Of a stretch of DNA of 64,000 nucleotides, positions 21,962-63,500 are shown in pieces (position 1 is the first letter of the stretch; each line of letters opens with the position of its first letter). The stretch is taken from contig CAXREJ010000044.1 in assembly GCA_964229765.1 (NCBI GenBank), positions 133,426 through 197,425 of the forward strand, in the 5' to 3' direction. Source of the DNA: Bdellovibrionales bacterium. GTDB taxonomy: Bacteria; Bdellovibrionota; Bdellovibrionia; Bdellovibrionales; JAGQZY01. The position numbers were made by a program, and so were the translations under genes. The notes beneath the pieces were generated by a model, which was not told the DNA's origin, did not search any database, and saw nothing but the letters and a program-made list of their open reading frames with translations.

Positions 21962-22015
21962 ATGAGGAAAAACTGACAGAACTAATGTAGAATGAATTAA
22001 TAACAAGAGGGTGCC

Positions 22016-25798: not shown

Positions 25799-25809
25799 GA
25801 GGGAATTGA

Positions 25810-27138: not shown

Positions 27139-27562
27139 GTATAAAACGGAATCTTATTTAAAGTTTGTAAAATTTGAGCGTAGTAAAGCGCTTAAATCTT
27201 TAAATGAAGCTGAAAGTTATAAAATGTCTTTGATCAAGAGGTACCAATATTTGGAGAACGAAATGAGTAAAGCTTATGGAACTAATTCAAACTTGGGGAA
27301 AAGTATAAAAGACGTCAACTTTATAAATGATAACAATATGTTTATTCTCAAAATTAAAGAGACGATGGAAGATTTGTCACAAGAGATTATGATGGCTGAA
27401 GCTGAGTTCCAAAAAAGAATGGAAAAACTTAAGGAGGTTCAGTTGAAGGTGAGAAAAATTGAACTTCATAAAGAGTTAGAGAAAGAAAAATACGACAAGG
27501 CTTTGAAGAAGAAAGTGCAAAAACAGTTAGACGATATAAATTCCAGTCGGAAGTGGGGATAG
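27125..27562 (+). CDS. fliJ: Flagellar export chaperone-like protein FliJ
   Basis: 145-aa all-coiled-coil protein immediately after fliI, overlapping it by 14 nt. Assigned by position and composition. Confidence 0.65.
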   Translation: MKKFKYKTESYLKFVKFERSKALKSLNEAESYKMSLIKRYQYLENEMSKAYGTNSNLGKSIKDVNFINDNNMFILKIKETMEDLSQEIMMAEAEFQKRMEKLKEVQLKVRKIELHKELEKEKYDKALKKKVQKQLDDINSSRKWG

Positions 27563-28327: not shown

Positions 28328-28337
28328 GGGCATTTAG

Positions 28338-29720: not shown

Positions 29721-29730
29721 AGGGTAGGGT

Positions 29731-30696: not shown

Positions 30697-30724
30697 TTAA
30701 GTTTTCTTATAATGGGGGGATATT

Positions 30725-45939: not shown

Positions 45940-46218
45940 ATGAAAATGACATCCAATATGATTGAAAGCCTTGTACGTCGAACCCTTGGTAATCTTGAGA
46001 AAAAAAAATTAGTGACCTTCAATAAGTCTAAGGAAGCTATTTTTGCTCGTGCCAAAGAAATCATCGAAAAAGACTTCCAGAAGGAGTCAAAGCTCGATGA
46101 AGAAGTGATGAGAATGCTTGATGATATTGAAAAAGAACAAACTGATCAGTTTGAACGTCATCGCATGTTTAAAATGTTAAAGAAGAAAGTGGCTGACGAA
46201 AGAGGTATTGTCTTATGA
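45940..46218 (+). CDS. DUF507-like small protein
   Basis: 92-aa charged helical protein whose pattern resembles DUF507. Overlaps a paralogous second copy by 4 nt. Confidence 0.5.
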   Translation: MKMTSNMIESLVRRTLGNLEKKKLVTFNKSKEAIFARAKEIIEKDFQKESKLDEEVMRMLDDIEKEQTDQFERHRMFKMLKKKVADERGIVL

Positions 46219-46496
46219 TTTTAAGTGAAGATCGTCAGAAACTATTCGCGCACTTACTAATAGATGGTCTGTGGGGCGATGAATTTATTGATTTCGATGA
46301 AGACTCTGAAGAAGTGATCATCCGTGAAACAAAGAGATTGATTGCTGAATGGGTGAATGAACAAGGTGACATTGATCAAGAGGTCAGAAACAAAATCAAT
46401 AATCTCAAACGTGATGTTCCTGAAGGTAGTTCAGAATATCGAGTCTTATATAAAAAATATTACGATGAAGAAATGTCTCGTCGAGGCTTTAAATAA
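46215..46496 (+). CDS. DUF507-like small protein (second copy)
   Basis: 93 aa, MILSEDRQKLFAHLLIDGL.... Translationally coupled to the previous ORF. Confidence 0.5.
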   Translation: MILSEDRQKLFAHLLIDGLWGDEFIDFDEDSEEVIIRETKRLIAEWVNEQGDIDQEVRNKINNLKRDVPEGSSEYRVLYKKYYDEEMSRRGFK

Positions 46497-46517: not shown

Positions 46518-48023
46518 TTGAATAAAACAAAGAGGAGGCCCTCGTTGAAAAAAACTTTTATCACTTTGATCACTGTCTTGACTTCGCAAGCACTTTTGGC
46601 TGGAGACATTAAGTGGGAGGGAACTTACCGCTTTGAAGCTTTGAAAGTCTTCAATCCTAGCATGGCCAATGGGGGAACTGATAAATCTTATATGCTTCAC
46701 CATATGACTTTACGCCCTCAGTTCCAGGCATTTGATGGCTTAAGAATTCATGGTCGCTTTGATTTGTTTAATAGCAATCGTTACCCAAATGATCAGTTGG
46801 GACAAACCTTTGGGCAAGGGGTGAACTCGACTCCAGGAACCATTGCAGGGCCTGGTGCTGGAGGCACTCCTCAAAATGGTGGTTTAGGTTCACAAACAAA
46901 TGGTAGTAATTCCAATACCATTAGTGATCAACAAGCCGCTGGTTTTATGGCTATTAATGAACTTTATGCTAACTGGATTCATGAGTTCGGTGTTTTAACT
47001 GTTGGACGTGCTCCGATGCATTTTGGTTTGGGAATGCAGTTTAATGGTGGTTTTGGCGTTTTTGATCACTGGTTAGAAAACCGTGATTTAATTGCTTACA
47101 AAATTGTTATGGGTAACTTTAGTGTTATGCCTGTTCTTGCGAAAACCTATGAGGGGTATTTAGATCAAGAAGATGATGTGAATGATTACATTCTTCAACT
47201 AAATTACAATAACCCTGAAACCGAACTTGAAGTTGGCTTTATATATCAAGCTCGAAGATCCACTAGTAATGCAAATAGTAACGATACCCCAATAGCTCCC
47301 ATTGGAGATGCTGGAACAGTATTGTCTGATAACTATGAAGTGGATTCTTACAACGTTTTTGTTTCTCAGTGGGTGGATGCTGTTAAAGTGGCCTTTGAAG
47401 TGGGCTTTATGAGTGGAAACACGGGCTTATCAACAGGTGGTGCTGAGATTAAGCATGATGCTTTTGGAGGAGCTGTTGAGATCTCGTGGATGCCTGAAGG
47501 TTCAAGTTGGGGCACGACTTTTGACCTGGGTTATGCCAGTGGTGATGATCCCTCAACACCTAATGTTTACGAAGGTTATGTGTTTGATCAAAACTATGAT
47601 GTGGCCTTTCTTTTGTTCAATCATCCCATGGGAACAGCCGATTTTTTTAGAACAGCTTATATGAGAAACATCAGCAACGGCGCGCCTGCTGCGACTTTTT
47701 CCGCTGGAAATTCTTTTGATACGGAAGCGATCAGTAATACAATTTATGCTTCCGGAGCTTTTCATTACAAATGGTATCAGAAATATCACTTAGAAACGCG
47801 CTTAACTTATGCGCAATTAAATAAGGATCCATTGAATGCAGGTGTGGACTCCAATGCTGGCCTTGAGTTAGACTTGAGTTTGAAATACGAACCTTTTAAA
47901 GGTTTTCAATGGGTTAACCGCGCTGGAATATTTATGCCTGGTGCGGCCTTTGAAGGAGGAACTAACAATCTTCCAATTAATAATGCATTTGGATTTGAAA
48001 CCAAAGCCGCCATCAGCTTTTGA
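46518..48023 (+). CDS. Porin-like outer-membrane beta-barrel protein
   Basis: TTG start and signal peptide ...TSQALLA/GD. G/N/S/Y-rich amphipathic strands and C-terminal ...ETKAAISF. Confidence 0.55.
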   Translation: MNKTKRRPSLKKTFITLITVLTSQALLAGDIKWEGTYRFEALKVFNPSMANGGTDKSYMLHHMTLRPQFQAFDGLRIHGRFDLFNSNRYPNDQLGQTFGQGVNSTPGTIAGPGAGGTPQNGGLGSQTNGSNSNTISDQQAAGFMAINELYANWIHEFGVLTVGRAPMHFGLGMQFNGGFGVFDHWLENRDLIAYKIVMGNFSVMPVLAKTYEGYLDQEDDVNDYILQLNYNNPETELEVGFIYQARRSTSNANSNDTPIAPIGDAGTVLSDNYEVDSYNVFVSQWVDAVKVAFEVGFMSGNTGLSTGGAEIKHDAFGGAVEISWMPEGSSWGTTFDLGYASGDDPSTPNVYEGYVFDQNYDVAFLLFNHPMGTADFFRTAYMRNISNGAPAATFSAGNSFDTEAISNTIYASGAFHYKWYQKYHLETRLTYAQLNKDPLNAGVDSNAGLELDLSLKYEPFKGFQWVNRAGIFMPGAAFEGGTNNLPINNAFGFETKAAISF

Positions 48024-48096
48024 TATCACCAAGGACATCATCTTAGTCAAAACAATTTACTAGCAACTTTGGCACAACTTTGAGGCGGAGCAGGGG

Positions 48097-48126
48097 CCCC
48101 GAGGGTAAAACCTCGGGGTTTTTTAT
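48097..48126 (+). terminator. Rho-independent terminator
   Basis: ccccgagg-gtaaaa-cctcgggg followed by TTTTTTATTTTT. Confidence 0.8.
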
Positions 48127-48458: not shown

Positions 48459-48486
48459 TCAATTTGGTTGGATTGATAGCCGAATA
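48459..48486 (+). promoter_or_regulatory. Candidate sigma-28 (FliA)-type promoter
   Basis: The -10 GCCGAATA (48479-48486) matches consensus GCCGATAA. The -35 is a weak TCAATTTG versus TAAAGTTT. The SD AAAGGAG and ATG 48509 follow at an appropriate distance. Confidence 0.35.
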
Positions 48487-48508
48487 GTTACATGCAAAGG
48501 AGTGCATA

Positions 48509-49108
48509 ATGATAAGGTTCTCAATATTATTTGTTGCGGTTTTAGTGACACTTAGTTCCTGTTCGACTTTAAAAATACAAGTGGATTCCGATCCCTCTGG
48601 GGCGAATGTTTACCTGAAAGAAGGTAAGAAGCTAAAAAATATTGGTGTTACGCCTGTTGAAATCAATCCCTCGATGATCGCAGGAAAAGACGATGTTCAA
48701 CTGCTTCTAAAAAAAGAAGGTTATCAAAATCATAGTATTTTGATGGCGAACACTTCATTAACGAGTCAGGCTGAAGTTTTTGCTAGTTTACAAAAACTTG
48801 AAAAAATGGAATCAACAATGGTTGCAGAAGGGGCTTCAATCGAGACCCAAAGAAGTCTGGCAAGTATTCAAACTGAGCTCATAAATAAAAATTACCAGCA
48901 AGCAGAGGTCTTAGCAAAATTCTTTTTAGATAAATCTCCTTACTCGCCAGTGGGTTGGAATTTATTAGGCAATGCTTATCTTTTACAAAATAAGAATCAA
49001 GAAGCTCAACAAGCTTATGAGCGGGCTTTGCAATATGATCCCGAAAATAAAGAAACACAGATGATTTTAAATCACCTGCAAACTCAACCAGGAAGGAGGA
49101 ACAACTAA
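48509..49108 (+). CDS. PEGA-domain / TPR-repeat lipoprotein
   Basis: Lipobox VTLSSC/STL. PEGA-like KIQVDSDPSGANVYL and C-terminal TPR-like AEVLAKFFLDKSPYSPVGWNLLGNAYLLQNKNQEAQQAYERALQYDPEN. Confidence 0.55.
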   Translation: MIRFSILFVAVLVTLSSCSTLKIQVDSDPSGANVYLKEGKKLKNIGVTPVEINPSMIAGKDDVQLLLKKEGYQNHSILMANTSLTSQAEVFASLQKLEKMESTMVAEGASIETQRSLASIQTELINKNYQQAEVLAKFFLDKSPYSPVGWNLLGNAYLLQNKNQEAQQAYERALQYDPENKETQMILNHLQTQPGRRNN

Positions 49109-49899
49109 TGTACAATCTTCTTGGTTTTGCTTTGGCATTCTTTCTTATTCAGACGGCTCTTAAAATATTAGGAGTGGGTTCAGAATTCTATTTCGATGAA
49201 GTGGCTTTATTAATTGTTTTTGGTGGAACATTTTCGGCCATGATTATTTCGTTTCCATCAAAATTTTTAATGCGCTTTATTCAAGCTCCTTGGAAAATCT
49301 TTCGCAGCAAAAGGAATTTTCAAAAATACACGATCGAAGAACTTATACAAACAGCCATGAAGGGGGACACTCAGCGAGTTTATCTACAGTCTCTTCTCCG
49401 TAATAATAAAATTGATAGTTTTTTTAAAGAAGGTATTGAACTCTATTTATTAGATTTGGATAGAGAAGAGTTTAAAGATATTTTGACGGAAAGAATTTAT
49501 CGTTCACGGCAAAGAGATGAAGAGTGGGTGAGTCTTTTTAGAAGACTTTCAAAGTACCCTCCGGCATTTGGACTTGTAGGAACGGTTTTGGGTCTTATTA
49601 GTTTGATGCGATCTGTGGGAGAGGGAGCCAATGCCTCTCAAATTGGTTTGAGTATGGCGATTGCACTTGTGGCCACACTTTACGGATTGGCCTTTTCAAA
49701 CTTTGTATTAGCCCCTATTGCAGAGAATTTTCAGAAAACAGCAGAGGATCAAAAAGTTTATAGAGAATTGATGTTAGAAGGCTTACTTTATTTGTTTGAT
49801 CGAAAAAGTGCACTTTCTGTACAGGAAATGTTGAATTCTTATCTCGAGCCCAATCAACGCATTGATCTGCTCGGTTTGAATGAAAGGGTTAGCGCTTAA
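49108..49899 (+). CDS. motA: MotA/PomA-family stator proton(ion)-channel protein
   Basis: Four TM segments, a large charged cytoplasmic loop, and the conserved PAFGLVGTVLGLISLM and MAIALVATLYGLAFSNFVLAPIAENF. The start overlaps the upstream stop (TAATG). Confidence 0.75.
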   Translation: MYNLLGFALAFFLIQTALKILGVGSEFYFDEVALLIVFGGTFSAMIISFPSKFLMRFIQAPWKIFRSKRNFQKYTIEELIQTAMKGDTQRVYLQSLLRNNKIDSFFKEGIELYLLDLDREEFKDILTERIYRSRQRDEEWVSLFRRLSKYPPAFGLVGTVLGLISLMRSVGEGANASQIGLSMAIALVATLYGLAFSNFVLAPIAENFQKTAEDQKVYRELMLEGLLYLFDRKSALSVQEMLNSYLEPNQRIDLLGLNERVSA

Positions 49900-49900
49900 T

Positions 49901-50905
49901 ATGCAGAAAAATAAACTAAGAGCCCCATTTTCTAGTGAAGAAGTCGAGAATAGCTGGGCGATCAGCTATGGCGACATGATCACATTGCTTTTGGGCTTTT
50001 TTGTTATTTTCTTTAATATTAAAAGTGAAACCATGAATATGACTCTCATTCAAAAAGACTTAGACAAGTATTTTAAGAATCAAAGTCAGATTGAGGAAGG
50101 TCGTAAGGTCGCCCAAGTTCAGGATAAAAATGCCGGCCCAGGTGTACCTATTGCCTCTACACAATTAGTTAACTCGTTGAAGTTAAAATCTAATTTGGAA
50201 GGTGAGAGAATTTTAGTGGAGTTCCCGGGAGTGAGCTTTTTCAACTCAGCCTCTCATCAACTCACTGAAAGTGGTAAAGATGTTTTAAAAGATTTCTCAA
50301 GAGCTATCGAGGGTCATTTAGGACAATTTCGCTTAGTCGTTAGAGGTTACACGGATGGAATTCCTGTTTCTAAAGGCTCAAGGTACAAAGACAATTTAGA
50401 GCTTTCCGCTTTTCGCTCCATAAGTGCAATTCGTTTTTTAGCTAATCAAGGATTAAACCTTAGTCAGATGAGAATTGCCGGCTATGGAGAATCTTCATTA
50501 AGTAGGCAAGCAATAAACTCTAAAGACAGGGGTGATGAGAGAAAAATTGTCATTGTGATTGAACCTTTAGACCATACAGAAAAGGTAGAGTCGCAAGGGG
50601 CTTACCTTATGCCAGATAAAGGCATTGAAGAGATTGAAAAAACCAACTTAAATGACCGAAAGATTAGTTCATTAAATACTAAGAATCCTCTTTTGGTTGG
50701 AGCTGAAGAACTATTAGGTGACGAGCTTTCCTGGAAAAACCTAGAGTATAAAAGTAATGAAGCTTTATTTTATATAGATGACCTAATTTCTAAAAATAAA
50801 TTGTATCAGAAATATTTGAATTACCTTGTGGAAAGAAATCTTAAGAAACAAGGCTACTCACAAAAAGAAATTGAGAAAATAAACAAACAAAGGACTAAGC
50901 AATGA
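49901..50905 (+). CDS. motB: MotB-family stator protein with OmpA-like peptidoglycan-binding domain and C-terminal extension
   Basis: WAISYGDMITLLLGFFVIFF carries the conserved channel Asp. OmpA-like VVRGYTDGIPV...NLELSAFRSISAIRFL...RIAGYGES. About 100 extra C-terminal residues. Confidence 0.75.
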   Translation: MQKNKLRAPFSSEEVENSWAISYGDMITLLLGFFVIFFNIKSETMNMTLIQKDLDKYFKNQSQIEEGRKVAQVQDKNAGPGVPIASTQLVNSLKLKSNLEGERILVEFPGVSFFNSASHQLTESGKDVLKDFSRAIEGHLGQFRLVVRGYTDGIPVSKGSRYKDNLELSAFRSISAIRFLANQGLNLSQMRIAGYGESSLSRQAINSKDRGDERKIVIVIEPLDHTEKVESQGAYLMPDKGIEEIEKTNLNDRKISSLNTKNPLLVGAEELLGDELSWKNLEYKSNEALFYIDDLISKNKLYQKYLNYLVERNLKKQGYSQKEIEKINKQRTKQ

Positions 50906-52578
50906 AATGGTTGTTGGTGTTCATAGTATGCCTCTCTGCTATCCCAAGTTTTGCATCGAGACTGCTCGAAGTAGAAGATTATTATCAGAGAAAGACAAGT
51001 GACTTTATAAAGAGTCGATATCCTCATCGAGCTTTTTCAGTCAATATTATTGTGCAGGCAGAAGAGCAGCCTGACTTGAGACAACCGGCATCGAATAGGT
51101 CCGGAGAATCTATAAGTTTACCTTACTTGAATCAGGTCACTTCCCCATCAGTTGGCTTTTGGGAGAGAAAAGATCTTTCTTTAGGGACAATGATTTCCTA
51201 TCTGAAGGGAATTTTTGTAAATGTTGAGATCGAGGGGCAGCTGTCTGAAATTGAACGAGAGAACTTTAAGAAAGATCTTTTTAAGTATTTAAAGCTATCT
51301 GAAATATATGACCGTATTGAAGTTAAAAATGGATTGTGGGGAGAGCGAAGTGAGCTATGGCAGGAAATAAAAGGTGGGGTTCTGGTAGCCTTGGCTTCCG
51401 TCTTGTCTTTAGGTTTTATATTGTTTGCTATTTTTCATCTTGGTGTGGGACGTCTAGTTAATGGATTGGCGAAACCTTTGTCTGAAATTGGTAAGTCAGC
51501 TGAAAGTGTCGCGAACTCCTCAGGAATCTCAACATCTTCAATGCCAAAGTCCTTTGTCGATTTAAATTCTCAAAATCAAAAAGATATTTTAGGGGAAGAT
51601 AAAGTCAATTGGATTGAAAACGAAATGAAAGAACTGTCCACTTTCTTTTCAGAGCCCAATTCTCAGCTTCTTCATTTGTTAGAGAAACATGGATATGAAA
51701 ATCCACATGCCGTGGGATCTTTGTTAAGTTTACTAAGTATTGAGACTTTAAAAGAACTGCTCGTTTGGTCACAAGGTTCTTGGTGGAGAACGGCTGTGAC
51801 TCAGCCAAGTCAATTAACGACAGCTTCAATGAATGTATTGTCAGAAATTATTCACCTTAAGAGAAGACAAGATCTCTTGCGTGAGAATGATGAAAAACAC
51901 AGAGAATTGGAACTGGCATTAACCCGTTTAAATAAGAAAGATTTTGGCACGATACTAAAAGGCTATGAGTTTGAAAAAGCCGAGCCAATATTAAATTTAC
52001 TTCCTTCTGATTTAAAAATGTCGGTGGGAAAATATTTGTATCCTGGAGAATGGGCTCGCTTATTAAAGGCTAATAACCAACCATTAGATGAAAAAATGGC
52101 TCAAACAATTCAATCTCAATCCTTAAAATTAGCACCTAGAAAAAGCACAGAAGAAATCAATCAGTACTTTAAAGACGCTGATTTGTTAAAAGTGCTCGAT
52201 CACTCTAATACTAAGGATGAAAGAGAAATTTATAGAACCTTAGATCAAGACTCTTGGATCGTTAAGAGTCGACAACCTTTTTACGCTATCTTTGATTCCA
52301 ATGAATCTGTATTGGAATCATTGATATTGACCATCCCGCTAGAGTCCTGGGCTATGGCGATCACACATTGTGACAGGGAAGAATGTGACACTTTGTTTAA
52401 GTACTTTAATTCAAGGCAGAAGTATATTCTACGCAACTTTAAAGAGCATTTTAAAAAGCAAAAGTTAGCTTCCTCTTTTGTGGCGCAGGCAAAACGGGAA
52501 ATAGTGATGCGAGTTGCACATCAAATAGAGCAAAATAAAAACTCAGCAGAGGAAAAAGTTCATGAGCAGGCTGCTTAA
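50902..52578 (+). CDS. Membrane-anchored protein with a cytoplasmic FliG-like (N/M/C motif) region
   Basis: Signal/anchor at aa 1-18, a TM at about aa 159-182, then blocks resembling the window's own FliG. These are FEKAEPILNLLPSDL, ENPHAVGSLLSLLSIETLKELL, and FYAIFDS...ECDTLFKYFNSRQKYILRNF...AQAKREIVMRVAHQIE. The start overlaps the motB stop (ATGA). Confidence 0.45.
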   Translation: MKWLLVFIVCLSAIPSFASRLLEVEDYYQRKTSDFIKSRYPHRAFSVNIIVQAEEQPDLRQPASNRSGESISLPYLNQVTSPSVGFWERKDLSLGTMISYLKGIFVNVEIEGQLSEIERENFKKDLFKYLKLSEIYDRIEVKNGLWGERSELWQEIKGGVLVALASVLSLGFILFAIFHLGVGRLVNGLAKPLSEIGKSAESVANSSGISTSSMPKSFVDLNSQNQKDILGEDKVNWIENEMKELSTFFSEPNSQLLHLLEKHGYENPHAVGSLLSLLSIETLKELLVWSQGSWWRTAVTQPSQLTTASMNVLSEIIHLKRRQDLLRENDEKHRELELALTRLNKKDFGTILKGYEFEKAEPILNLLPSDLKMSVGKYLYPGEWARLLKANNQPLDEKMAQTIQSQSLKLAPRKSTEEINQYFKDADLLKVLDHSNTKDEREIYRTLDQDSWIVKSRQPFYAIFDSNESVLESLILTIPLESWAMAITHCDREECDTLFKYFNSRQKYILRNFKEHFKKQKLASSFVAQAKREIVMRVAHQIEQNKNSAEEKVHEQAA

Positions 52579-53101
52579 AGTTGTACTAATTTGCTTCTTA
52601 TTATCAAGTTATGCTCAAGCGGCCACTCAAGTGGGTGTTAAAGCCGGAACTTGGACTTTTTCTCGAAATGGTCAGTCCACTAGCGGTGTGGGAGCCTATT
52701 CTCTTGAAGTGAATCAACCGATTAGACCCTCCATCAGTCTTTCTGTTGGTATTAGTTTTCTTTATGAAAATGGTTTCAGTGGAAGTTCAGGTTATGGCTT
52801 TGATTTTGGTGCCAGGTATTTTCCTTGGACTTTTGCAAGTCATCATCAAGCCGGATCAGAAGACTCATCAGTGGCCTATTCTGAAAAGTTTCGCCCTTAT
52901 GCGGGACTTTTTTTAAGGCAAAGACTTTTTGGATTATCACAATCTGTCAGCTATCTAGGGCCTGGCGTTTCAGCGGGATTAGACTACTCACTCTATGATT
53001 CTTTTTTGCTCAATGCTGAAGCTCGTTATGATCAGTTGCAAGGAAGTGATTCAACAGCAACACAAATAAACCTATTATTTGGTTGTACTTGGGAATTCTA
53101 A
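52562..53101 (+). CDS. Small outer-membrane beta-barrel protein
   Basis: Signal peptide ...SSYAQA/ATQ, about 8 amphipathic strands, and C-terminal LLFGCTWEF. Overlaps the upstream gene by 17 nt. Confidence 0.5.
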   Translation: MSRLLKVVLICFLLSSYAQAATQVGVKAGTWTFSRNGQSTSGVGAYSLEVNQPIRPSISLSVGISFLYENGFSGSSGYGFDFGARYFPWTFASHHQAGSEDSSVAYSEKFRPYAGLFLRQRLFGLSQSVSYLGPGVSAGLDYSLYDSFLLNAEARYDQLQGSDSTATQINLLFGCTWEF

Positions 53102-53165
53102 ATCCCTTTATTCTTTAAATTAAAGAGTTTATTTCTCTTAGAATACGAGTAAAATCCTTTATTGT

Positions 53166-53756
53166 ATGAAAAAACCTCAATGGCTTTCCCATTATGATTT
53201 TGGACCTGTGGTTGAAATGCCAAAATCTTATCATGTTTATGATTTCTCAAAAGAGAAGAGTTCATCCACTTATATTTACAGTGTGGGACGTTATAATGAA
53301 AAACGTCCGCAAATGTACACCACACCTTTATTTAAAAATCAGCACAGAGATATTCATATGGGGATTGACCTAGGAGTTCCTAAGGGATCTCCTGTCTTTA
53401 ATTTTTATAGGGGTGAGTTGATTTATAAAAAAAATAATCAAGGGGAGGGTGACTACGGTCCTACTTTGGTTTTTCGCTATAAGTTTGAATCAATCTATCT
53501 CTATGCTTTGTATGGTCATCTTAGTCTTTCTTCTTTAGATTTACACTCCGTCGGAGATGTTGTTGAAAGAGGGGGGAAGATAGCTTTTGTCGGAGATCAA
53601 ACAGTTAATGGTGGTTGGTTTCCTCATGTGCATTTTCAATTAAGCCTCAAAGATCCTCAGGAGGCGGACATGGCGGGAGTGGTTGCAAGTAAGGATCATA
53701 AACAAGCCTTAGAGCTTTACCCTGATCCACGTTGGGTACTTGGTTCGATTTATTAG
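53166..53756 (+). CDS. M23-family (LytM-like) metallopeptidase-domain protein without an obvious signal peptide
   Basis: HMGIDLGVPKGSPV (HxxxD) and GWFPHVHFQL (HxH) motifs. The N-terminus is hydrophilic. Confidence 0.65.
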   Translation: MKKPQWLSHYDFGPVVEMPKSYHVYDFSKEKSSSTYIYSVGRYNEKRPQMYTTPLFKNQHRDIHMGIDLGVPKGSPVFNFYRGELIYKKNNQGEGDYGPTLVFRYKFESIYLYALYGHLSLSSLDLHSVGDVVERGGKIAFVGDQTVNGGWFPHVHFQLSLKDPQEADMAGVVASKDHKQALELYPDPRWVLGSIY

Positions 53757-53996: not shown

Positions 53997-55238
53997 TTAA
54001 GGTTCCGTGCTTGGATTTGCTGTTAGGACATCAGTTTCATTGCTAAAATTGAGGGTCGTGCTGGCTGAAACGGAAGCAAAATCAGCTCCATTATATCCAG
54101 AAAGAAATGTTCCAAGAAATGCTGATCCGCTCACATTTCCGCCAGCTAGAGCAGTAGCAGAAGCACTGCATAAGCTACCATCAATGGCTATATTCCCATT
54201 GCTTCCATTGACACAGGCTCTGAATTCACCGGCTCCACCAAGTTCATTTTCAGATTCTAAGCTGAGTGAAAACTGGCCTCCTGTTGTATTTGGTTTCCCA
54301 GCAAGAACGAACAAAGTCTCACGATAGTCCTCTCCAGCTGTTTCATCATCATCCATTCCTCTTGCACTTAAAATATAGCCATTGTCTTCATTGGCGTCAT
54401 AAAAGAGTCTGTAAAAGCTGGCATAAGGCCCATCATTATCAGCAGTAGTATCATTCATAGATCCAGCCTGGGGTCCTGAAACGTATTCTCCTTTTAAGAT
54501 ATCGTTAGTCACGTCATAATAGACCACTGTTCTGGAAGCTCTCGGTATACTGTCATAGGTATAAGTTTCTGCTGTTGCAACGTTGATAGATGTAGAGCTT
54601 GCACGAAAATAATAAACTTGCTCTCCACCGTTCATTTCACTGAGATCAATAGTCGCCTTTTTATCAAAATTTGTTGTATCTTCTGCATCTTCAATGACGA
54701 TTGTCATAGAAGTACCGTCTGGAATGTCATCAACATCTTGAAAGTTACATTGAGACTTCATGCCAGCTTTAACACTTGGAGAAAATGAAAAAGTTTGCCC
54801 TTCTGCTCCAGTGTTTTCAGGGTAGCCGCTAGAGTTGCCTAGAGCAACTCCCATAGCACACATTATTTTCATAGCGCCTTGAACTCGACCTACGACGGAA
54901 ATATCGGATCCGTTGTCTCTTTTGGATTCGGCATCAATTTCATTTCCCATATAATCTTTTGTTGATATAAGAGAACAAGATTGTCCTGAACAAGCTTGGT
55001 CTGGCCAATTCGTGTCGACCTCCCAAGCATTTGAGAAATTGGGGGCAGCTGTTGCTTTAATTGCTGACCCTGATTCTCCTTGTATGAAATCAATTTGACT
55101 TAATTTTGTTGATAGCGTTCCAAAGGAAGATGTCATTGGGTTAACGACTTCTGAACTGGTAGTAGCACTATCATCGTTACTACTACAGGCCATTAATGAA
55201 AGAGATAAAACTGCAAAAATAAGATATTTCATTTTCAT
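53997..55238 (-). CDS. Hypothetical lipoprotein (D/S/T/G-rich)
   Basis: ATG 55238 with GGAG 9 nt upstream. Lipobox LSLMAC/SSNDD. No recognised domain. Confidence 0.55.
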   Translation of the reverse strand: MKMKYLIFAVLSLSLMACSSNDDSATTSSEVVNPMTSSFGTLSTKLSQIDFIQGESGSAIKATAAPNFSNAWEVDTNWPDQACSGQSCSLISTKDYMGNEIDAESKRDNGSDISVVGRVQGAMKIMCAMGVALGNSSGYPENTGAEGQTFSFSPSVKAGMKSQCNFQDVDDIPDGTSMTIVIEDAEDTTNFDKKATIDLSEMNGGEQVYYFRASSTSINVATAETYTYDSIPRASRTVVYYDVTNDILKGEYVSGPQAGSMNDTTADNDGPYASFYRLFYDANEDNGYILSARGMDDDETAGEDYRETLFVLAGKPNTTGGQFSLSLESENELGGAGEFRACVNGSNGNIAIDGSLCSASATALAGGNVSGSAFLGTFLSGYNGADFASVSASTTLNFSNETDVLTANPSTEP

Positions 55239-55481
55239 GTAAATGCTCCGTTGAGAAAATATTAATAATTTGTATTTTTCTATCGACAATTTTTTTGAAT
55301 GGTATTAACTATTTTTGATCAACTTCAAATTGAAGCTCAATTCATCTTAAAACTATTTTAAAGTATTGATAAAAGACTACATTAAAAACAACTGTTCTTA
55401 TTTAGTATTCTCGTTTTTCATGATGTTTTCATTCTATGAAAAGAGTCCTTAATTGTATGGTGCTAATAAAGGACTGTGTGC

Positions 55482-58400
55482 TTAAGGAGAAAGTTTTACT
55501 TTACGGATAACGTGATTGTAGGTGTCTCCAATATAAAGATCACCGTTTCCATCAAAAGTCACTCCAGAAGGGTATAGGAGTGTTGCCGATGTGGCTAAAA
55601 TCCCCTCTTGTGAAAAATCGAATGTTGATCCTCCACTGGGTGAGTTTTCACTTCTTCCAGCGACAGTGTTGACAAAACCGGTTGTTGTATCAATACAGCG
55701 AACGTTGTGTCGGTTTCTTTGTGCATAACAAAGTTGGTTGTTGTACAATGCAAGACCTACAGGTTGGTTACAGCGAGCCGAGGTGGCAAGAACATTTTCG
55801 TTTGGTGAGCCACCTGTTCCACTGATGCAAGCAATGACTTTTACACGATTGGCATTGATTGTCGTAGGACCAATATTCACTGGAGCCGCTGTACGGTTCC
55901 AGTACCAAATATGATGATTGCTAAAGTCTGAAATAAAAAGATTACCAAGGCTATCTATGGCAATGTCTTTGGGTCGATTAAAACGAGCAGCGGCTTCTGC
56001 GACGTCGAACCCTGGATTACCCGATGTACCACAAAGTCCAAGGACAGTTGTTACATTTCCAGTATTATCCAACTTTCTTATACAGTGATTGTTTGAGTCC
56101 GCTATAAAAACCTCTGGATTGCCACCGTTATCGTAGAAACGGGCAGAGTTAGGGTGATCCATTTGAGCACTCACACCGTTACCATCACTTGTTCCAGGGG
56201 AAGCATAGTTTCCGGCGAGTGTTGTAATTCTATCAGAGGTGATATACTGATTAAAATAAGTATTACCAGTTTGAGTGCGATTCCAAAGTCTTAGATTGTG
56301 ACCATCACTATTTAATTGCAGAAGACTTCCATCGGGTAATAAATCAAATGCCGTTATCGTAGTGTCATTTCCGTTAAAGGTTGTGCGCATGGGTGCGCCC
56401 CCTGGAAAGTCATCATCAATAATGGGATCTCCAGCAGCATCACCATTACCAACGACTGTTTTTAAAAGTCCATATGGATTAACGCTCCTAATAGTTTGAT
56501 TATGTTGGTCTGCAATGAAAAGAGTATTGGTGCTATCTTCATAAGTAATGCCCGTCGGATAGTCGAGAAGATGTTGAAAGTGAGGTTTTTCGGCATCATT
56601 GGTAAAGCCGTTTTTACCACTGCCAGATCCTAACAAGTTAGCAATACTTCCGCTCGCAATATCAACGGCTCTTACGCGGTAATTGGTGTAATCAGCAATT
56701 AACAATTCACTATTGTTAATCGGATTAATAGCAAGATGGTAGGGTTGATTAAAGCGTGTGGAGTTAACACCAAAATTAACACCATTGTAGCCACCACTAA
56801 TACTACTGAAGCGACCGAGCTGTCCGTTGGGAATTGTTTGAGCATCAATGGTAATAGGAGCAGGGGAATTATTGCCTAAAACAAGGTGATGTCTTTGGCG
56901 ACCAGATACATAAATTTCATTAAGGTTTCTAACAAAAACACTGGTTGGCAAGCCGATTGGAGAGCTGAGTGGATTACCAGTGGCAGGAGTATTACCTGTA
57001 CCACCATCACCCATAATAGTGGCAACATTGCCGTTACTGACAGTAAGGGCGTCAGGATTTCCTGCCCAAAAGTTAATGGGACCTCCAGAATGATTTACAA
57101 ATCGGACGACATCGAGATCATATAAGGTGACATAGATTCCGTTGGTATCAACAAATAAACCATATGGTCTACGCATTCCACCAGAAGTGGCGGCAATATT
57201 TTCACCAGCGCCGTCTGCACCACCATCACCAGCAACAACATAAGCAAGGTCTGTTGATAAATCCCATCTTTTAACTCGGTGGTGGTCATAACAAGTGACA
57301 TAAAGGCTGCCGGCATAACCAAATAAATCCACAGGACGATTGCAGTCATGATTGTAGGCTGAGTCACCATCGACATGAGAGTTTGATCCTCCCATTCCAG
57401 TAAAGACAACTCCTGAGCTATTTACAAATTTAACTTGATGTCCATCGTATTCGGCAATGAAGAGTCGATCTCCAACTTCATCGTACCATAGACCATAAGG
57501 ATTATTAAGAGGAGATTGAGTGGCTGGGATTCCGATTGCACCTGTTGCATCTTCACCTGTACCAGCGACCACTTGAATCACTCCGGCAGGGATTGTTTGC
57601 CCAATGCGAGTCACGGGGGCACCGGTTTGGTTCCAGTACCATACGACCATACTATCAAGATCTGATATAAAAAGATTTCCGTTGGACTCTTGATGGAATT
57701 TAAAAGGTCTAAAGCGCAATGGAAATTGGGTATTATTTGCTGCTAGTTGGTTTCCTTTATGAGCGCCACCGGCAAATGTACAAATTTGACCTGTCTGTAA
57801 TTGATTACATGCTTGGTTGAAGTAATTAATTTCAACATTCCAAGTGTACTGACTTGAACGTGTTCCATCACTGACATTGAGAGTGATGGTTGCATTTCCA
57901 ACTTCTGTGGGATCGCCAGTTAAAGTTCCAGTGCCGCTAACTCCAGTGAGTAGAGAAGAAGTGGCTCCATTAAGAAGCCAAGTGTAGGTGAGAGAATCGC
58001 TGTTAGGGTCGCTGGCTGTAGCATTAATATTAAGTGTTCCGTCGTAAGCCACTTTTGGTGTGCCTGTGGTAACAGGTGTAATAACGGGTGGTCCATTGAT
58101 CTTAATATTCCAGGTTCGCGATTTAGTGGTTGTATTGTCTGAGGCTTGAGCGACTAATGTATAAGAGCCAACATTGCTCACATCTCCTGTTAAGGAGACA
58201 ACATTGGTTGCGCCAATCGGCTGTCCATTGAGTGTCCACGAATAAGTGAGTTGGGCAGGGTAAGGAGATATTGCCGTGATAACAAAGTCTTTAGTTTCAT
58301 TAATTTCTATAATGATATTGTTGCTACCAGGTATGTAGCTAGTAATTTCTAAGTCACCACCAACAACAGTAGTTGTACCACCTTCTCCGGCTAATATGCC

Positions 58401-58487
58401 GAGTCCATCATCACCTTGTTTACAAGAGTTAGACAACAATGCAAAAGTAACTAAAAATAAACAATAAAACGTACGACGTGAAATCAT
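55482..58487 (-). CDS. Large surface lipoprotein with N-terminal Ig/PKD-like modules and many NHL-type beta-propeller repeats
   Basis: Lipobox LLSNSC/KQG. Repeated ...YTWLLNG.../...TWNVEINY Ig-like modules. More than 10 NHL-like units such as PYGLFVDTNGIYVT, PTGITYEDSTNTLFIADQHNQTIRSV and PSGVTFDGNGDLYIGDTYNHVIRKV. Confidence 0.65.
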   Translation of the reverse strand: MISRRTFYCLFLVTFALLSNSCKQGDDGLGILAGEGGTTTVVGGDLEITSYIPGSNNIIIEINETKDFVITAISPYPAQLTYSWTLNGQPIGATNVVSLTGDVSNVGSYTLVAQASDNTTTKSRTWNIKINGPPVITPVTTGTPKVAYDGTLNINATASDPNSDSLTYTWLLNGATSSLLTGVSGTGTLTGDPTEVGNATITLNVSDGTRSSQYTWNVEINYFNQACNQLQTGQICTFAGGAHKGNQLAANNTQFPLRFRPFKFHQESNGNLFISDLDSMVVWYWNQTGAPVTRIGQTIPAGVIQVVAGTGEDATGAIGIPATQSPLNNPYGLWYDEVGDRLFIAEYDGHQVKFVNSSGVVFTGMGGSNSHVDGDSAYNHDCNRPVDLFGYAGSLYVTCYDHHRVKRWDLSTDLAYVVAGDGGADGAGENIAATSGGMRRPYGLFVDTNGIYVTLYDLDVVRFVNHSGGPINFWAGNPDALTVSNGNVATIMGDGGTGNTPATGNPLSSPIGLPTSVFVRNLNEIYVSGRQRHHLVLGNNSPAPITIDAQTIPNGQLGRFSSISGGYNGVNFGVNSTRFNQPYHLAINPINNSELLIADYTNYRVRAVDIASGSIANLLGSGSGKNGFTNDAEKPHFQHLLDYPTGITYEDSTNTLFIADQHNQTIRSVNPYGLLKTVVGNGDAAGDPIIDDDFPGGAPMRTTFNGNDTTITAFDLLPDGSLLQLNSDGHNLRLWNRTQTGNTYFNQYITSDRITTLAGNYASPGTSDGNGVSAQMDHPNSARFYDNGGNPEVFIADSNNHCIRKLDNTGNVTTVLGLCGTSGNPGFDVAEAAARFNRPKDIAIDSLGNLFISDFSNHHIWYWNRTAAPVNIGPTTINANRVKVIACISGTGGSPNENVLATSARCNQPVGLALYNNQLCYAQRNRHNVRCIDTTTGFVNTVAGRSENSPSGGSTFDFSQEGILATSATLLYPSGVTFDGNGDLYIGDTYNHVIRKVKLSP

Positions 58488-60522: not shown

Positions 60523-63500
60523 TTATTTTGATAATAGTTTTTCAATAGCTTCAAGACGCAGCTTGAGTTCATCAATTTGTCGATCTTTTTCTTTAATTGT
60601 ATTTTCTAGTTTTTTATTTACTGTGGCCAATTGACGATCATTTTCTTTCTTTATTTTTTGTATTTGACGATTTTGTTCGTGATCGGCTGAGCTTAGGTTA
60701 ATATAAGCATGACCATTTGCTAGTAAGTATCCAACTGGGAGATGATCATTGGTATAAATTTGACCATTTTTTATAATCACTTGAGAGTTATCAAAAGGAA
60801 CTTGTCCTGTCAGTGCGACAAGGACTGAGTGCTCATGGTTGGCCAATTCAGAGTTACCGATTACGCCAGGATTGGTAGAAACAAAACCGATAAGATTATC
60901 TCCCGCTTTATAATGTCGTACTTTTCCAGTTTTAATGTTGAGGCCCACTAAGTCGCCAGGTACAAGAACTTCTTCGGCTTCAAAATACTCAGCATAGTCG
61001 GCTCCAGTATTTAATGTTGTTTCCGCTGATATTTGACCACCACTGGGAATAGCACTACAAGTACCATCACTGGTGACACAAACACCACCACCAGCACCAG
61101 AGCCATCTACATGAAACTTGGAAGAAGGTGTTGTTGTTCCAATCCCCACATTACCACTGTTATCAATTGTCATTACAGCATCGGCTGAAGTCGCATCGGC
61201 ATTGTTATCAGCACTATTTTGCAGAAAATGCATTTTACCTCGACCATTGGAATTTGTACGGGAGTAAATTAGACCTCCCTTACCAAGATTACCTGTCGTT
61301 CGCGACGAAGCATCCACTGAAAACAGAAGGCCTGTTGCTGTCGAAGCAACATCAGAACTATTAGATAACCTTAAGGCATAGGCCGTATTTCCAGACGAAC
61401 TACTATCCACACTGAGTTTTGAAGTGGGAACGGTATAACCAATTCCAACGTTACCGGAATTTAACACCGTCAGTTTTGCATCGGTGGCCCACCATGATGT
61501 ACCAAACCCAACATGATAAGAATCAGTTGTACCGATGCTTCCTAGAAAGCCGGCCCCACCCTGACGTGTTCCTGAGTTTGTTGCCACAAGACCACGCGCC
61601 CAGCCTCCTGTGACATTGTCATTCTCAATAACAAATCCTTGATTGGTATCTGCAACCAAATTCACATTGGATGCACTTCCATCGGCTCGAATCGATCCAA
61701 CAACATGAAGTGCTGTTGCTGGTGCCGTTGTTCCAATACCAACATTGCTACCGTCAAATACCATGGTTGGTGCATTCGATTCTTTTTGAAATTTAAGCTT
61801 GTCTGCATCACTTACATCATTATAAATACCCCAGTCCACATTTGTCTGTTCATTGCGGAAGGATATACCAGCATCTTCACCAGTCGCATTATCTCCACCA
61901 ATCATTAGAATTGATGAGGCGCCAGCACTAAGGGATAAATCACCAGGAGAGTTGTTACCTATAAATACACCACCATCATCACCAGGTAATTTGATATGAA
62001 GTATATCACTAGGGTTAGTTGTTCCGATCCCCACATTTCCTGCAGAACTTATAGCAAAAAATGCATTTGCATTTTGAGCTGTCGCTGGATCATGAGTTGC
62101 CGACGGACTACGACTAATAATGTATTTATCAGTACTAGAATAAGGCGTTCCAGCAAACCACTCTTGTGAACCTAGAGTATCTAGCATAAAAACACCTTGA
62201 CCACGAAAGTCAGCGCTACCTCGACTTTCTAAAACAATTTCAGCCGCTGTGTAATTTGAACCAGCGCCAGAAATTCTTAGTCGTGATACACTTGAATCTT
62301 CATAAACCTCAAGCTGCGAAGATGGATTTGTCGTTCCAATTCCCACATTACCGTTCCCATGAATACGCATTGTTTCGGTGTAGCTTGTATTACCATCGCG
62401 ATGTCCAAAGACAATATGGGGAGAATAAGCAGTACTAGAGTTTGCAACGGCACCAATGTATGAAAACTGACGATTGCCAGCTGTGGGTGAAGCGATGAGA
62501 TTTAAAAAAGCTGCTGTGTCATCGAGACTGTTGGTATTTTCAATCATTATAGATGTATTTTGCGTAGCACTTCCAGGGTAAGCAGAAGCTCCTGAGGGTG
62601 TGTAAGCAAAACTTGAGGACTTTTTCAATGTAAGTAATTCTTCCGCTGATGTCGTACCAATCCCGACATTGCCCCCATTGGATACATATAGATGGGGAGC
62701 ATCCGCACTTGAATTGCTTCCACTTAAAGCCAATCCACCATTTTTACCAAAAATAGAGGACATATGAGAATTACTTCCATTGTTATTATCAGATAAGTTG
62801 ATAGCTCCATTACCACTGGCGCTAGCTCCGTCTGTGACCGAAACTAAACCATGACTATGAAATTTAGAAAGAGGACCCGATGTACCAATAGCTATATTTC
62901 CTCCATTAGCAATTCTCATGTATTCAGTAAATCTTGGAGTGTCTGCACTATGATAGCGTCCCAGTCGTATGTGTGAGTTGTGGGCAGCGATGATAGCATT
63001 TTCATTGGACTGAGAGTCTCTTCCCAGTATAAGAGAGCGACTAGCGGATCGGCGACTTAGGGAAAACATGGGCACCATTTCTGTCGCGTCACTTCCACTA
63101 AGATCAGTGCTATCCCAAACTGTGAGAAGGTCAGATGGATTATTAGTTCCAATACCTAAGCTACCAGAAGTAATAAACGTATGACCCGTGCCTTTAGGTG
63201 TGAGATTTAAATCAACATTAGCATCACTTCCTGCAGCGGCTATGGTAGGACCATTGCCAGTCGCCCCTGCTTTAATTTCAACATAATTTACTCCACTGGC
63301 AGTATGTGTAATTCTCAATCCTTCTACGCCATCGGCAACAAAGCCTACAGCTCCATTTGTTGGACGAAACATTCCAGTATTAGAATCACCTTGGAAGGCA
63401 AAAGAGGGAGCATTGTTTGTTCCTGTTGTAGCATGCATTCGTCCGTTTTCTGTGACTTCGGCTACTGTTGCACCATCGTTTTGAAAAAGTACTCCGCCAT

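Follow-up and report, generated by a model that had tools for sequence, protein, structure and literature searches.

A motA-motB pair set among genes for envelope proteins, away from the main flagellar operon, raises the question of whether it forms part of a flagellar accessory or powers a machine of its own. Such a locus lies in a 64,000 nt stretch of Bdellovibrionales DNA (hereafter, the window), and the original prediction left the choice open. The evidence now leans towards an independent machine, without settling the matter. Our best explanation, to which we would give about an even chance, is that the genes specify a self-contained stator-rotor machine derived from the flagellum and apart from the flagellar basal body; any function assigned to its output is pure inference.

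Locus organization and conservation

Five co-directional genes (48509-53101) encode a PEGA/TPR lipoprotein, MotA, MotB, a 558 aa membrane protein and an outer-membrane barrel (Table 1). Re-checking of the ORFs bore out both this gene set and the junctions originally described: a TAATG with a 1 nt overlap at 49108 (lipoprotein/motA), a 1 nt gap at 49899/49901 (motA/motB), an ATGA overlap at 50902 (motB/558 aa protein gene) and a 17 nt overlap at 52562 (558 aa protein gene/barrel gene). The MotB start was placed at 49901 and not at an earlier ATG in the ORF list (49880) because all homologues begin at the corresponding MxxNKL. Position 48459, which had been given as the start of the unit, belongs to a putative -35 element; it is not a gene start, as the first gene begins at 48509. 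The window also contains a flgB-flgE operon (21108-32011), which lies 16.5 kb from the module and has no motAB inside it.

Table 1. Features of the stator locus and its surroundings (window coordinates)
Feature	Position	Strand	Details
Intrinsic-terminator-like hairpin closing the upstream OMP gene	48092..48123	+	13-bp stem with 7 GC pairs, then T-run
FliA (sigma-28)-type promoter candidate	48459..48486	+	TCAAT-N16-CCGAAT(A)
PEGA + 2xTPR lipoprotein	48509..49108	+	199 aa; Pfam PEGA, TPR_1/2
MotA/PomA-like stator A subunit, flagellar-type	49108..49899	+	263 aa; PF01618 (1.5e-22)
MotB-like stator B subunit	49901..50905	+	334 aa; plug, TM Asp, OmpA-like domain, C-terminal extension
Candidate rotor protein	50902..52578	+	558 aa; AF2 models, Foldseek, family profile
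Small outer-membrane beta-barrel	52562..53101	+	179 aa; weak Pfam OMP_b-brl, Opacity
M23 gene	start 53166		Pfam Peptidase_M23 (2e-11); 64 nt downstream of barrel gene
NHL-repeat beta-propeller/Ig-like lipoprotein	55482..58487	-	1001 aa; Pfam NHL (6e-23), TEN_NHL, Big_9

The terminator-like hairpin separates the module from upstream transcription. In the promoter candidate, the -10 octamer GCCGAATA (48479-48486) is found 22 nt before the ATG, and TCAAT-N16-CCGAAT has a single match in the window. The earlier call of a FliA-like promoter is backed by a CCGAWW element 20-35 nt upstream of the ATG in six of eight orthologous loci, by identical TCAAT-N16 spacing in loci L003 and L005 and by the same N16 spacing in the FliA consensus determined by experiment in B. 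bacteriovorus, TTAAG-N16-CCGATA (PMC3627812). FliA in B. bacteriovorus controls many non-flagellar attack-phase genes and is not specific to flagellar genes (PMC3627812). A conserved FliA-type promoter is a mark of attack-phase genes in Bdellovibrio, not only of flagellar ones. No Rfam match to a riboswitch or known RNA was found in the 385 nt upstream spacer or elsewhere.

The same gene order was found in every related locus retrieved (8 genome or assembly loci, 1 gene table and 28 metagenome loci), with order judged only in loci long enough to show it and with identity of the 558 aa protein falling to about 24%. In every locus motB is directly followed by the gene for this protein, and most of the other loci show a start/stop overlap like the one in the window. 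Apart from the five-gene core and the usual NHL/Ig gene described below, no neighbour is conserved, and the other loci show no linkage of the module to flagellar genes. Because the five-gene order is kept in all informative loci while other neighbours change, the grouping is more than chance. Conservation of gene order had been proposed as a check on this locus, and it gives strong support to the description of a stator-centred, envelope-spanning, translationally coupled unit apart from the flgB-flgE operon. Every source that has a name is a MAG of Bdellovibrionales or Oligoflexales, and the module is restricted, as far as sampled, to Bdellovibrionota. In the rows shown of the HD100 gene table, motAB1 is followed by hypothetical proteins of 370, 311 and 739 aa, sizes unlike those of the module. 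The family of the 558 aa protein comprises 207 representative clusters at 50% identity, with named members annotated only as hypothetical; the 30 clusters looked up were all very small, came from metagenomes or MAGs and bore the name "hypothetical protein". A profile search of a 5.8-billion-protein index with the first, broad alignment returned only nine close relatives, as the word index limits its reach. The metagenome loci were found with a narrower alignment.

A sixth conserved gene, overlooked at first reading, encodes the NHL/Ig lipoprotein. It is present in 8/8 loci with DNA, with a conserved SC-K lipobox and a size of 1000-1700 aa across loci, and is a usually adjacent member of the module. 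The gene adjoins the barrel gene in L001 and L003-L005, follows it co-directionally in L006 (overlapping), L009 and the P0037 locus, lies upstream in L002 and is missing from the immediate neighbourhood in L015, L018, L020 and L026. In this window alone, the barrel gene and the NHL/Ig gene, which is inverted, are held apart by inserted genes for the M23 protein and a 430 aa lipoprotein. The M23 gene was rightly placed just downstream of the barrel gene, but it is no conserved neighbour: no other locus has it beside the module, and it was ruled out as a member, being a window-specific insertion outside the module. A PBP1-type gene is also found near the module in this window, and it too is not a conserved neighbour.

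For the PEGA/TPR lipoprotein, PEGA scores above the Pfam cut-off (22.8 bits), the lipobox is LSSC with Cys18 invariant in eight orthologues, and only generic TPR matches were obtained in the PDB. The barrel protein, whose gene is conserved in all loci, has a signal peptide and a C-terminal ...WEF beta-signal; its profile aligns with the 8-stranded barrels NspA and Opa at E-values of 0.08-0.3. Neither the TPR lipoprotein nor the barrel has profile similarity to MotX, MotY, FlgT, FlgO/FlgP or PflA/PflB, and profile matches were limited to generic TPR, PEGA and weak OMP_b-brl/Opacity/AcfA. The analogy once drawn with the MotX/MotY T-ring is left without support by these searches, and identity with a MotX/MotY/FlgT/PflAB-type scaffold was rejected.

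Stator pair and candidate rotor protein

The stator is identified from its sequence as a flagellar-type MotAB with a plug, a channel Asp and an OmpA-like peptidoglycan anchor, the comparison group being flagellar MotAB/PomAB (the 'FIT' clade of PMC12505986). MotA matches flagellar MotA/PomA structures in the PDB (E-values: 3e-30 to 8e-17) and the NCBIfam flagellar motor protein (1.8e-36, versus 5.9e-5 for TolQ). MotB matches Pfam MotB_plug (3.3e-8) and OmpA (5e-10) as well as MotB structures (9e-12); its TM helix carries a conserved Asp (YGDMITLLL), with WAISYGDMITLLLGFF invariant across orthologues. The best NCBIfam scores, 125.5 bits for MotA and 87.8 bits for MotB, do not reach the curated equivalog cut-offs (237 and 283, respectively). 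The C-terminal extension of about 100 aa reported for MotB is real (334 aa versus about 240 aa) but only clade-specific, as L002, L006, L009 and most metagenome loci lack it.

The charges through which MotA contacts FliG were read from a gapless alignment of eight module MotAs anchored on FLKEG. The position equivalent to R90 (E. coli numbering) is D, G, K, G, G, H, Q and N in these proteins, while that equivalent to E98 is S, S, K, K, P, R, E and T; the canonical R90/E98 pair is therefore not conserved among them. The canonical torque helix (R..DD..R) is intact in the flagellar FliG encoded in the window, and this contrast argues for a module stator adapted to a partner of its own. Charges in MotA and in the FliG-like torque helix showed no consistent covariation, the number of pairs being too small.

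This partner would be the 558 aa protein, members of whose family are 555-600 aa in length across loci. It has a signal peptide, a periplasmic alpha-beta-beta-alpha-beta domain (residues about 20-145), a TM helix (about 158-183), a linker and an all-helical cytoplasmic region (about 228-557). In flagella, FliG_C is the domain that is pushed by MotA. Taken alone, the window's protein falls below the Pfam FliG_C threshold (1.7e-3; 19.1 bits versus a cut-off of 23.3), but homology to FliG_C is significant by sequence comparison at the family level: 30/70 members match (best E-value: 1.5e-10), and the family profile matches T. maritima FliG_C (1qc7) at 6.8e-5. MgtE_N/FliG-type repeats were detected in 15/70 members. 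When the protein was compared with Foldseek, full-length FliG gave the best matches (residues 228-557; 306-340 aligned columns; E-values: 5e-4 to 1e-2), with a low global TM-score (0.26-0.30) that reflects either a different arrangement of the domains or a poor prediction of it. The FliG_C part superposes on 1qc7 and on 8ucs_H, the FliG_C chain of a MotAB-FliG complex, with an rmsd of 1.4-1.9 A and a TM-score of 0.68-0.80. An hhalign comparison of the family with the window's FliG aligned the C-domain alone, at a low probability that is attributed to the use of a single sequence as template. The cytoplasmic part is homologous to FliG in its FliG_C domain and may match FliG over its full length. 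In its torque helix, the equivalent of E. coli R281 is kept as R/K, that of D288 is E in the broad family consensus and N/Q/S in the window's clade, and that of D289 is not conserved.

The periplasmic part, a single domain of about 125 aa, resembles the ring-building RBM3 of FliF, a likeness that is structural only and rests on an AF2 model (pLDDT 82), in which the order of secondary-structure elements agrees with that of an RBM fold. FliF RBM3/S-ring structures account for 17 of the top 20 Foldseek matches (probability 0.94-1.0; E-values: 2e-3 to 3e-2; TMq 0.46-0.57), and the OsmC fold ranks second. The insert between beta1 and beta2 is conserved, with W87 invariant. RBM1 and RBM2 are absent. 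None of the 70 family members has a Pfam or NCBIfam match to YscJ_FliF or YscJ_FliF_C, and hhalign against the window's FliF gave no sequence signal (probability 0.1%), so sequence homology to that protein was rejected. No FliM or FliN gene occurs in any of the loci, and no export-gate gene is found near the module. The earlier term "FliG-like membrane protein" is thus apt but incomplete; by joining an RBM3-like domain to a region that resembles full-length FliG, with a TM helix between them, this protein becomes a candidate rotor and not an accessory.

Interpretation of the locus

In the proposed stator-rotor machine, the fusion protein would oligomerize via its RBM3-like domain to give an inner-membrane ring with a FliG-like ring on its cytoplasmic face, while MotB would fix the stator to peptidoglycan. 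Ion flow would rotate the MotA pentamer, which would drive the FliG_C-like domains and so turn the ring or drag its subunits. A short periplasmic collar may then hand this motion to the proteins on the outer-membrane side (the TPR/PEGA lipoprotein, the barrel and the NHL/Ig lipoprotein). As the module has no genes for an export apparatus, rod, hook, filament, FliM or FliN, its output is inferred to be not a filament but an envelope or surface process; our preferred guess is movement of a surface lipoprotein or adhesin, as in gliding-type motility or prey contact. Expression from the FliA-type promoter would fall in the attack phase in this phylum, and the C-terminal -AA/-VA conserved on both MotA and the rotor protein (-AA in the window) suggests that they are removed by regulated proteolysis. 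Neither experiments nor structures show the 558 aa protein forming a ring or touching MotA. A bolder version, which we think unlikely though not to be dismissed, is that the module is an unrecognized rotary nanomachine of Bdellovibrionota that kept the torque pair (MotAB on a fused FliF-FliG ring), discarded type III export and the axial filament, and powers gliding, adhesin transport or prey attachment/entry via the outer-membrane barrel and NHL/Ig lipoprotein.

A serious rival is a flagellar accessory, in which the genes would provide alternative stators for a polar sheathed flagellum together with a periplasmic and outer-membrane scaffold, by analogy with MotX/MotY/FlgT or PflA/PflB, with the FliG-like membrane protein in charge of recruiting, parking or regulating stators beside the basal body. 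We consider this possible but doubtful. The FliA-type promoter, which is conserved, and the flagellar-type stator (PomAB/MotCD-like, with plug) fit a flagellar role equally well, although FliA promoters of B. bacteriovorus are not specific to flagellar genes. The flgB-flgE operon in the window is 16.5 kb away and lacks motAB, but linkage to flagellar genes is conserved in no other locus. BALOs have 1-4 stand-alone motAB pairs, and Morehouse 2011 reportedly describes, to judge by its title, several such pairs acting on one flagellum. Several pairs per BALO genome have been reported to act in this way (PMC11323537). The TPR protein, OmpA-like domain, lipoprotein and barrel recall parts of the T-ring, H-ring and basal disk, yet they lack the profile likeness noted above, and the partner protein repeats parts of the rotor, with its likeness to FliF RBM3 and to a complete FliG, and not parts of a scaffold. 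Moreover, the module's MotA lacks the R90/E98 charges with which to meet the canonical torque helix kept by the genome's true FliG.

Tol-Pal-like envelope maintenance, in which a 5:2 motor would energize outer membrane-peptidoglycan tethering or remodelling (e.g. in division or predation), seems improbable. The TPR lipoprotein would correspond to CpoB, the NHL propeller to TolB and the peptidoglycan-binding domain on MotB to Pal. These parallels, which extend to the motor pair and an inner membrane-anchored transducer, are joined by a weak TPR match to tol-pal YbgF and by the nearby PBP1-type and M23 genes. The YbgF score is, however, far below its cut-off (20.4 versus 90.1 bits), as is that of MotA against TolQ (5.9e-5, 22.9 bits versus 221, against 1.8e-36 for flagellar motor proteins), and the M23 and PBP genes are not conserved neighbours. 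The transducer is mostly cytoplasmic and FliG-like and does not span the periplasm like TolA/TonB, no TolA-like periplasmic protein was found, and the propeller is of the NHL and not the TolB type. An ordinary flagellar motAB pair with unrelated, tightly packed neighbours is scarcely conceivable; short gene overlaps are common in compact bacterial genomes, but constancy of the five-gene order over deep divergence refutes chance neighbours. Zorya or another defence system was also rejected, with no ZorA match and only generic MotB/ZorB similarity.

In the literature, we found nothing on a FliG-like partner of a non-flagellar MotAB and no description of this module. The gliding motor of Bdellovibrionota is still listed as unidentified (PMC13104615), and a 2026 review states the same of the gliding machinery of Bdellovibrio. 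If the stator-rotor reading is true, the locus would be the first natural case of flagellar-clade MotAB and FliG/FliF-derived rotor parts reused without a flagellum. It would bear on flagellar motor evolution and modular re-deployment, provide structural and single-molecule studies with a minimal stator-rotor pair in a compact genetic form, and be a concrete candidate for the source of motor-driven behaviour that lacks an explanation in predatory Bdellovibrionota. Even as a flagellar accessory, the module would add a novel type of motor component, namely a FliF/FliG-like protein that is anchored in the membrane and encoded beside a stator of its own.

Comparison with known motor systems

A close likeness is to the flagellar motor core (MotAB/PomAB, the FliF MS-ring and FliG). 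The module shares with it a MotA with four TM helices (PF01618; nearest to PomA/MotC/MotP), a MotB with plug, channel Asp and OmpA-like anchor, a FliG_C-like domain behind FliG_N/M-like helical repeats, an RBM3-like periplasmic domain and a sigma-28-type promoter as in late flagellar genes. In contrast to flagella, where FliF and FliG are separate proteins, the two parts form one polypeptide in the module: flagellar FliG is soluble and cytoplasmic, binding the FliF C-terminus non-covalently as well as FliM, whereas a signal peptide, a periplasmic domain and a TM helix mark the module protein as a membrane protein. FliF has RBM1/RBM2 and a central channel for the export gate, and the module has neither these domains nor export-gate genes nearby. 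It is also unlinked to flagellar loci, without genes for FliM/FliN, rod, hook or filament, conserves neither MotA R90/E98 nor, in the clade of the window, the acidic residue of the torque helix, and adds the PEGA/TPR lipoprotein, small barrel and giant NHL/Ig lipoprotein. If read as a nanomachine that kept the torque pair and discarded type III export, the module would in that respect mirror the injectisome.

The stator scaffolds of the high-torque motors of Vibrio (MotX/MotY/FlgT/FlgO/FlgP) and Campylobacter/Helicobacter (PflA/PflB/FlgP) resemble the module in placing a TPR-type periplasmic protein, a lipoprotein, an outer-membrane protein and extra peptidoglycan-binding around the stator. 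Unlike the module, they have no FliG- or FliF-like component and no fixed operon with their own motAB. Tol-Pal, ExbBD-TonB, the AglRQS-Glt gliding complex of Myxococcus, Bacteroidota GldLM/T9SS and Zorya ZorAB, like the module, couple a MotAB-superfamily motor to dedicated envelope partners that lead to the outer membrane or surface. In other 5:2 ion-motor machines, force exits via an arm in the periplasm, namely TolA, TonB or GldM, or via the long cytoplasmic tail of ZorA, whereas the module's motor is of the flagellar clade and its partner offers a cytoplasmic FliG-like domain.

Gene content and conservation of the locus

The five core genes begin 16.5 kb past the flagellar operon in a window of ~38% G+C, and this operon lacks motAB. 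A 385-nt spacer separates the first of them from the hairpin upstream. All of the junctions in the original prediction (TAATG, 1-nt gap, ATGA and 17-nt overlap) were correct; homologue alignment places the MotB start at 49901 and not at the ATG at 49880. The flagellar operon is preceded by a receiver-less sigma-54 activator with AAA+ and HTH domains, immediately upstream of flgB. Together with the 918-aa TPR protein, this activator is possibly a master regulator pair for the operon.

Features of the window
Feature	Position	Strand	Remarks
918-aa multi-TPR protein and 326-aa sigma-54 activator	17368-21101	+	TPR protein overlaps start of activator
Flagellar operon, class-II-type	21108-32011	+	flgB, flgC, fliF, fliG, fliH, fliI, fliJ, fliK, flgD, flgE
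Small ORFs (DUF507 halves)	45940-46218, 46215-46496	+	Overlapping; model positions 1-93 and 95-182
501-aa OM protein	46518-48023	+	TTG start; TIGR04551 family, weak Alginate_exp match
Terminator-like hairpin, strong	48092-48123		Upstream of module
GCCGAATA	48479-48486		22 nt before ATG of first module gene
PEGA+TPR lipoprotein	48509-49108		Co-directional with other four core genes
MotA	49108-49899		TAATG junction with lipoprotein gene
MotA C-terminus	49891-49899		
MotB	49901-50905		1-nt gap after MotA
MotB C-terminal extension	50605-50905		Residues ~235-334
558-aa membrane protein	50902-52578		ATGA overlap with MotB gene
558-aa protein C-terminus	52570-52578		
OM barrel, 179 aa	52562-53101		17-nt overlap with 558-aa protein gene
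M23 metallopeptidase	53166-53756	+	64 nt after barrel gene; HxxxD/HxH intact, no signal peptide
Lipoprotein, 430 aa, Ser/Thr/Asn-rich	53997-55289	-	No family match
NHL/Ig lipoprotein	55482-58487		Convergent with module
1153-aa protein	60523-63984	-	Peptidase_G2/intramolecular-chaperone autoproteolytic domain near C-terminus

With the 558-aa protein as query, a word-indexed search gave no more than nine close relatives. An exhaustive profile search recovered 207 representative clusters (50% identity), almost all 540-600 aa in length and matching end to end; 150 had E<=1e-30. Gene-order conservation in relatives had been named originally as a test of the unit, and the order was kept. The five genes occur in this order, at protein identities of 37-69%, in five GTDB genomes, each of them a Bdellovibrionales or Bdellovibrionia MAG; the order is unchanged in three further assemblies of a distant branch (~24% identity). 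A metagenome scan added 28 loci, ten of them complete, in which the lipoprotein-MotA-MotB-558aa-barrel order held wherever the contig reaches. Coincidental packing of unrelated genes is ruled out by this synteny.

When every ORF in 21 loci was clustered all-against-all, no gene family besides the core was common to at least three loci, with the single exception of the NHL-repeat/Ig-like lipoprotein. This 1000-1700-aa protein is encoded in all eight DNA loci first examined and in most of the longer metagenome loci, and is usually a module member. In the distant branch its gene follows the barrel gene co-directionally, overlapping it in one related locus (L006). The M23 and 430-aa lipoprotein genes are inserted between the barrel and NHL genes in this genome only. 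The M23 gene, noted originally as following the five genes, was thus rejected as a module member, the clustering having shown no conserved M23 neighbour. No flagellar genes were linked to the module in loci other than the window.

Several neighbouring features were also recorded. In NCBIfam, the M23 protein best matches an internal part of a 1015-aa "hypothetical" family. The 501-aa OM protein gene, directly upstream of the module here, is not kept there in other loci. The two small ORFs before it, each matching one half of Pfam DUF507, represent a naturally split pair or one gene broken by a frameshift. The Peptidase_G2 domain of the 1153-aa protein is like those of phage tailspikes and some surface fibres. 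At the end of metagenome contig Ga0169931_10016247 (locus L036), a fragment (bp 9001-9324) resembling the periplasmic domain of the rotor-like 558-aa protein adjoins a 2360-aa NHL-type gene. No MotAB was detected upstream of it; the locus may have a different architecture, or its assembly may be at fault.

Promoter and outer-envelope components

The FliA-like promoter proposed originally is supported by its spacing and by comparison. Ahead of GCCGAATA, TCAAT lies exactly N16 from CCGAAT, and the same bipartite element is common to two related loci (L003 and L005). A CCGAWW motif occurs 20-35 nt upstream of the ATG in six of eight loci, against a background of ~0.0009 per nt. The FliA consensus mapped in B. 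bacteriovorus reads TTAAG-N16-CCGATA (PMC3627812). Because this consensus drives two-thirds of B. bacteriovorus attack-phase promoters, including those of many non-flagellar genes (PMC3627812), the promoter supports attack-phase expression in this phylum rather than a specifically flagellar role. No Rfam family was found in the leader of the module.

In the product of the first gene, the lipobox Cys is invariant and is accompanied by a PEGA domain and two TPRs. The barrel protein carries a signal peptide, ends in Phe and weakly resembles the 8-stranded NspA/Opa barrels. The NHL protein, in which the SC-K lipobox is conserved, combines two or three Ig-like domains with several NHL propeller repeats. 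An analogy with the MotX/MotY T-ring had been suggested, but profile searches found no likeness to MotX, MotY, FlgT, FlgO/P or PflA/B in any of these three proteins.

The 558-aa protein and the stator

In the AlphaFold2 model of the 558-aa protein (ten homologues, mean pLDDT 76), a signal peptide is followed by a domain spanning residues 20-145 and then a long TM helix, which a disordered linker joins to an all-helical region (228-557). When the whole model was compared with the PDB using Foldseek, full-length FliG structures (8wiw, 3hjl, 9n49 and others) ranked first, with E-values of 5e-4 to 1e-2 over 306-340 aligned columns. Isolated FliG_C superposed at 1.5-1.9 A, and the FliG_C chain of a MotAB-FliG complex (8ucs_H) at 1.4 A. 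The window's own protein matches Pfam FliG_C only marginally (19 bits); this domain is found in 30 of 70 family members (best 1.5e-10), and the related MgtE_N in 15 of the 70. In the PDB, a 137-sequence family profile matched T. maritima FliG_C at 6.8e-5. FliG homology is therefore established.

FliF RBM3/S-ring structures followed FliG in the Foldseek list, matching the N-terminal domain. Modelled separately (40 homologues, pLDDT 82), this domain matched FliF RBM3 or S-ring in 17 of the top 20 structures (probability 0.94-1.0, TM ~0.5), with an OsmC fold at rank 2. Its predicted topology is alpha-beta-(disordered conserved insert)-beta-alpha-beta. The insert between beta1 and beta2 (LPY...W87, with W87 invariant) is placed where, we assume, FliF RBM3 has its beta-collar. 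Comparison of 70 family members with FliF gave no sequence signal, so this resemblance is structural only and moderate. With a ring-building-type domain in the periplasm and a FliG in the cytoplasm, on either side of a TM helix, the protein has the layout expected of a FliF without RBM1-2 fused to FliG. Its original description as a FliG-like membrane protein holds at the family level, but misses the FliF-RBM3-like periplasmic part.

Against solved structures of flagellar MotA/PomA, MotA scores 3e-30 to 8e-17; NCBIfam flagellar motor families match it at 1.8e-36, as opposed to 5.9e-5 for TolQ. MotB has the plug, channel Asp and OmpA-like domain; neither protein reaches an equivalog cut-off. 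PADLOC found no ZorA, and Zorya was rejected. In E. coli MotA, R90 and E98 are two residues contacting FliG (PMC12505986); equivalents are conserved in none of eight module MotAs in a gapless, well-anchored alignment. The window's genuine FliG retains the canonical R..DD..R torque helix. The FliG-like helix of the module retains the basic residue and, in the window's clade, carries N/Q/S in place of the first acidic residue. To us this suggests that the stator has been re-tuned to its own partner, although covariation was not shown because there were too few pairs. The ~100-aa MotB C-terminal extension noted originally does exist (predicted helical, with a conserved motif YQK..D.LV....L...GYS), but it is clade-specific, occurring in five of six members of the window's close clade and in none of the distant module MotBs (~240 aa).

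The final residue of the rotor-like protein is Ala in 126 of 137 family members (-AA 93, -VA 21, -SA 8; alignment A2), after a tail that varies and is acidic or polar. The eight cognate MotAs all have -SA, -AS or -AA as their last two residues, and both C-termini are cytoplasmic. These ends are like an ssrA-like ClpXP/FtsH degron and, by this analogy, could permit quick dismantling of the machine.

Possible functions and relation to known systems

The co-inheritance of the stator and the FliF/FliG-like protein is best accounted for by a stator and rotor that serve each other and descend from the flagellar motor, an explanation to which we give about even odds. This reading rests on the adjacency of the stator and 558-aa genes in every locus (with translational coupling here), the lack of linkage to other flagellar genes outside the window and the absence of FliM/FliN, export or axial genes from the module. 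Force would pass from MotA to a FliG_C-like ring, a periplasmic collar and finally the OM lipoproteins and barrel. As output we favour, by inference, surface or adhesin movement, because an OM barrel and two lipoproteins, one of them very large and made up of propellers and Ig domains, consistently accompany the motor. The main alternative, which we hold less likely, is that the module is a flagellar accessory, providing the sheathed flagellum with another stator and organising it; stand-alone motAB pairs number 1-4 in BALO genomes (PMC11323537), and the promoter and stator type are consistent with such a role. A Tol-Pal-like envelope system would match the parts list, but the sequence affinities and the cytoplasmic FliG-like transducer do not fit, and we consider it improbable.

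All named family members looked up are annotated "hypothetical protein" and come from metagenomes or from MAGs of Bdellovibrionales or Oligoflexales, and there is no NCBIfam model for the 558-aa protein. The clusters looked up for it were all tiny, and the module's presence in cultured B. bacteriovorus is not established. We found no description in the literature of a FliG/FliF-like partner of a MotAB outside a flagellar locus; a recent MotAB phylogeny treats flagellar-clade stators as flagellar (PMC12505986). In the part of the HD100 gene table that covers Bd0144-Bd0148 (PMC3627812 supplement), motB1 (Bd0145) is followed without gaps by three hypotheticals of 370, 311 and 739 aa. As far as these entries go, the model organism therefore also has a stand-alone motAB pair with tightly joined partners of no known function; they differ in size from the module's genes, and kinship was not shown. 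Since a 2026 review lists the Bdellovibrio gliding machinery as still unidentified (PMC13104615), the putative stator-rotor module is an attractive but unproven candidate for it, and we place it among the machines driven by flagellar-type 5:2 motors.
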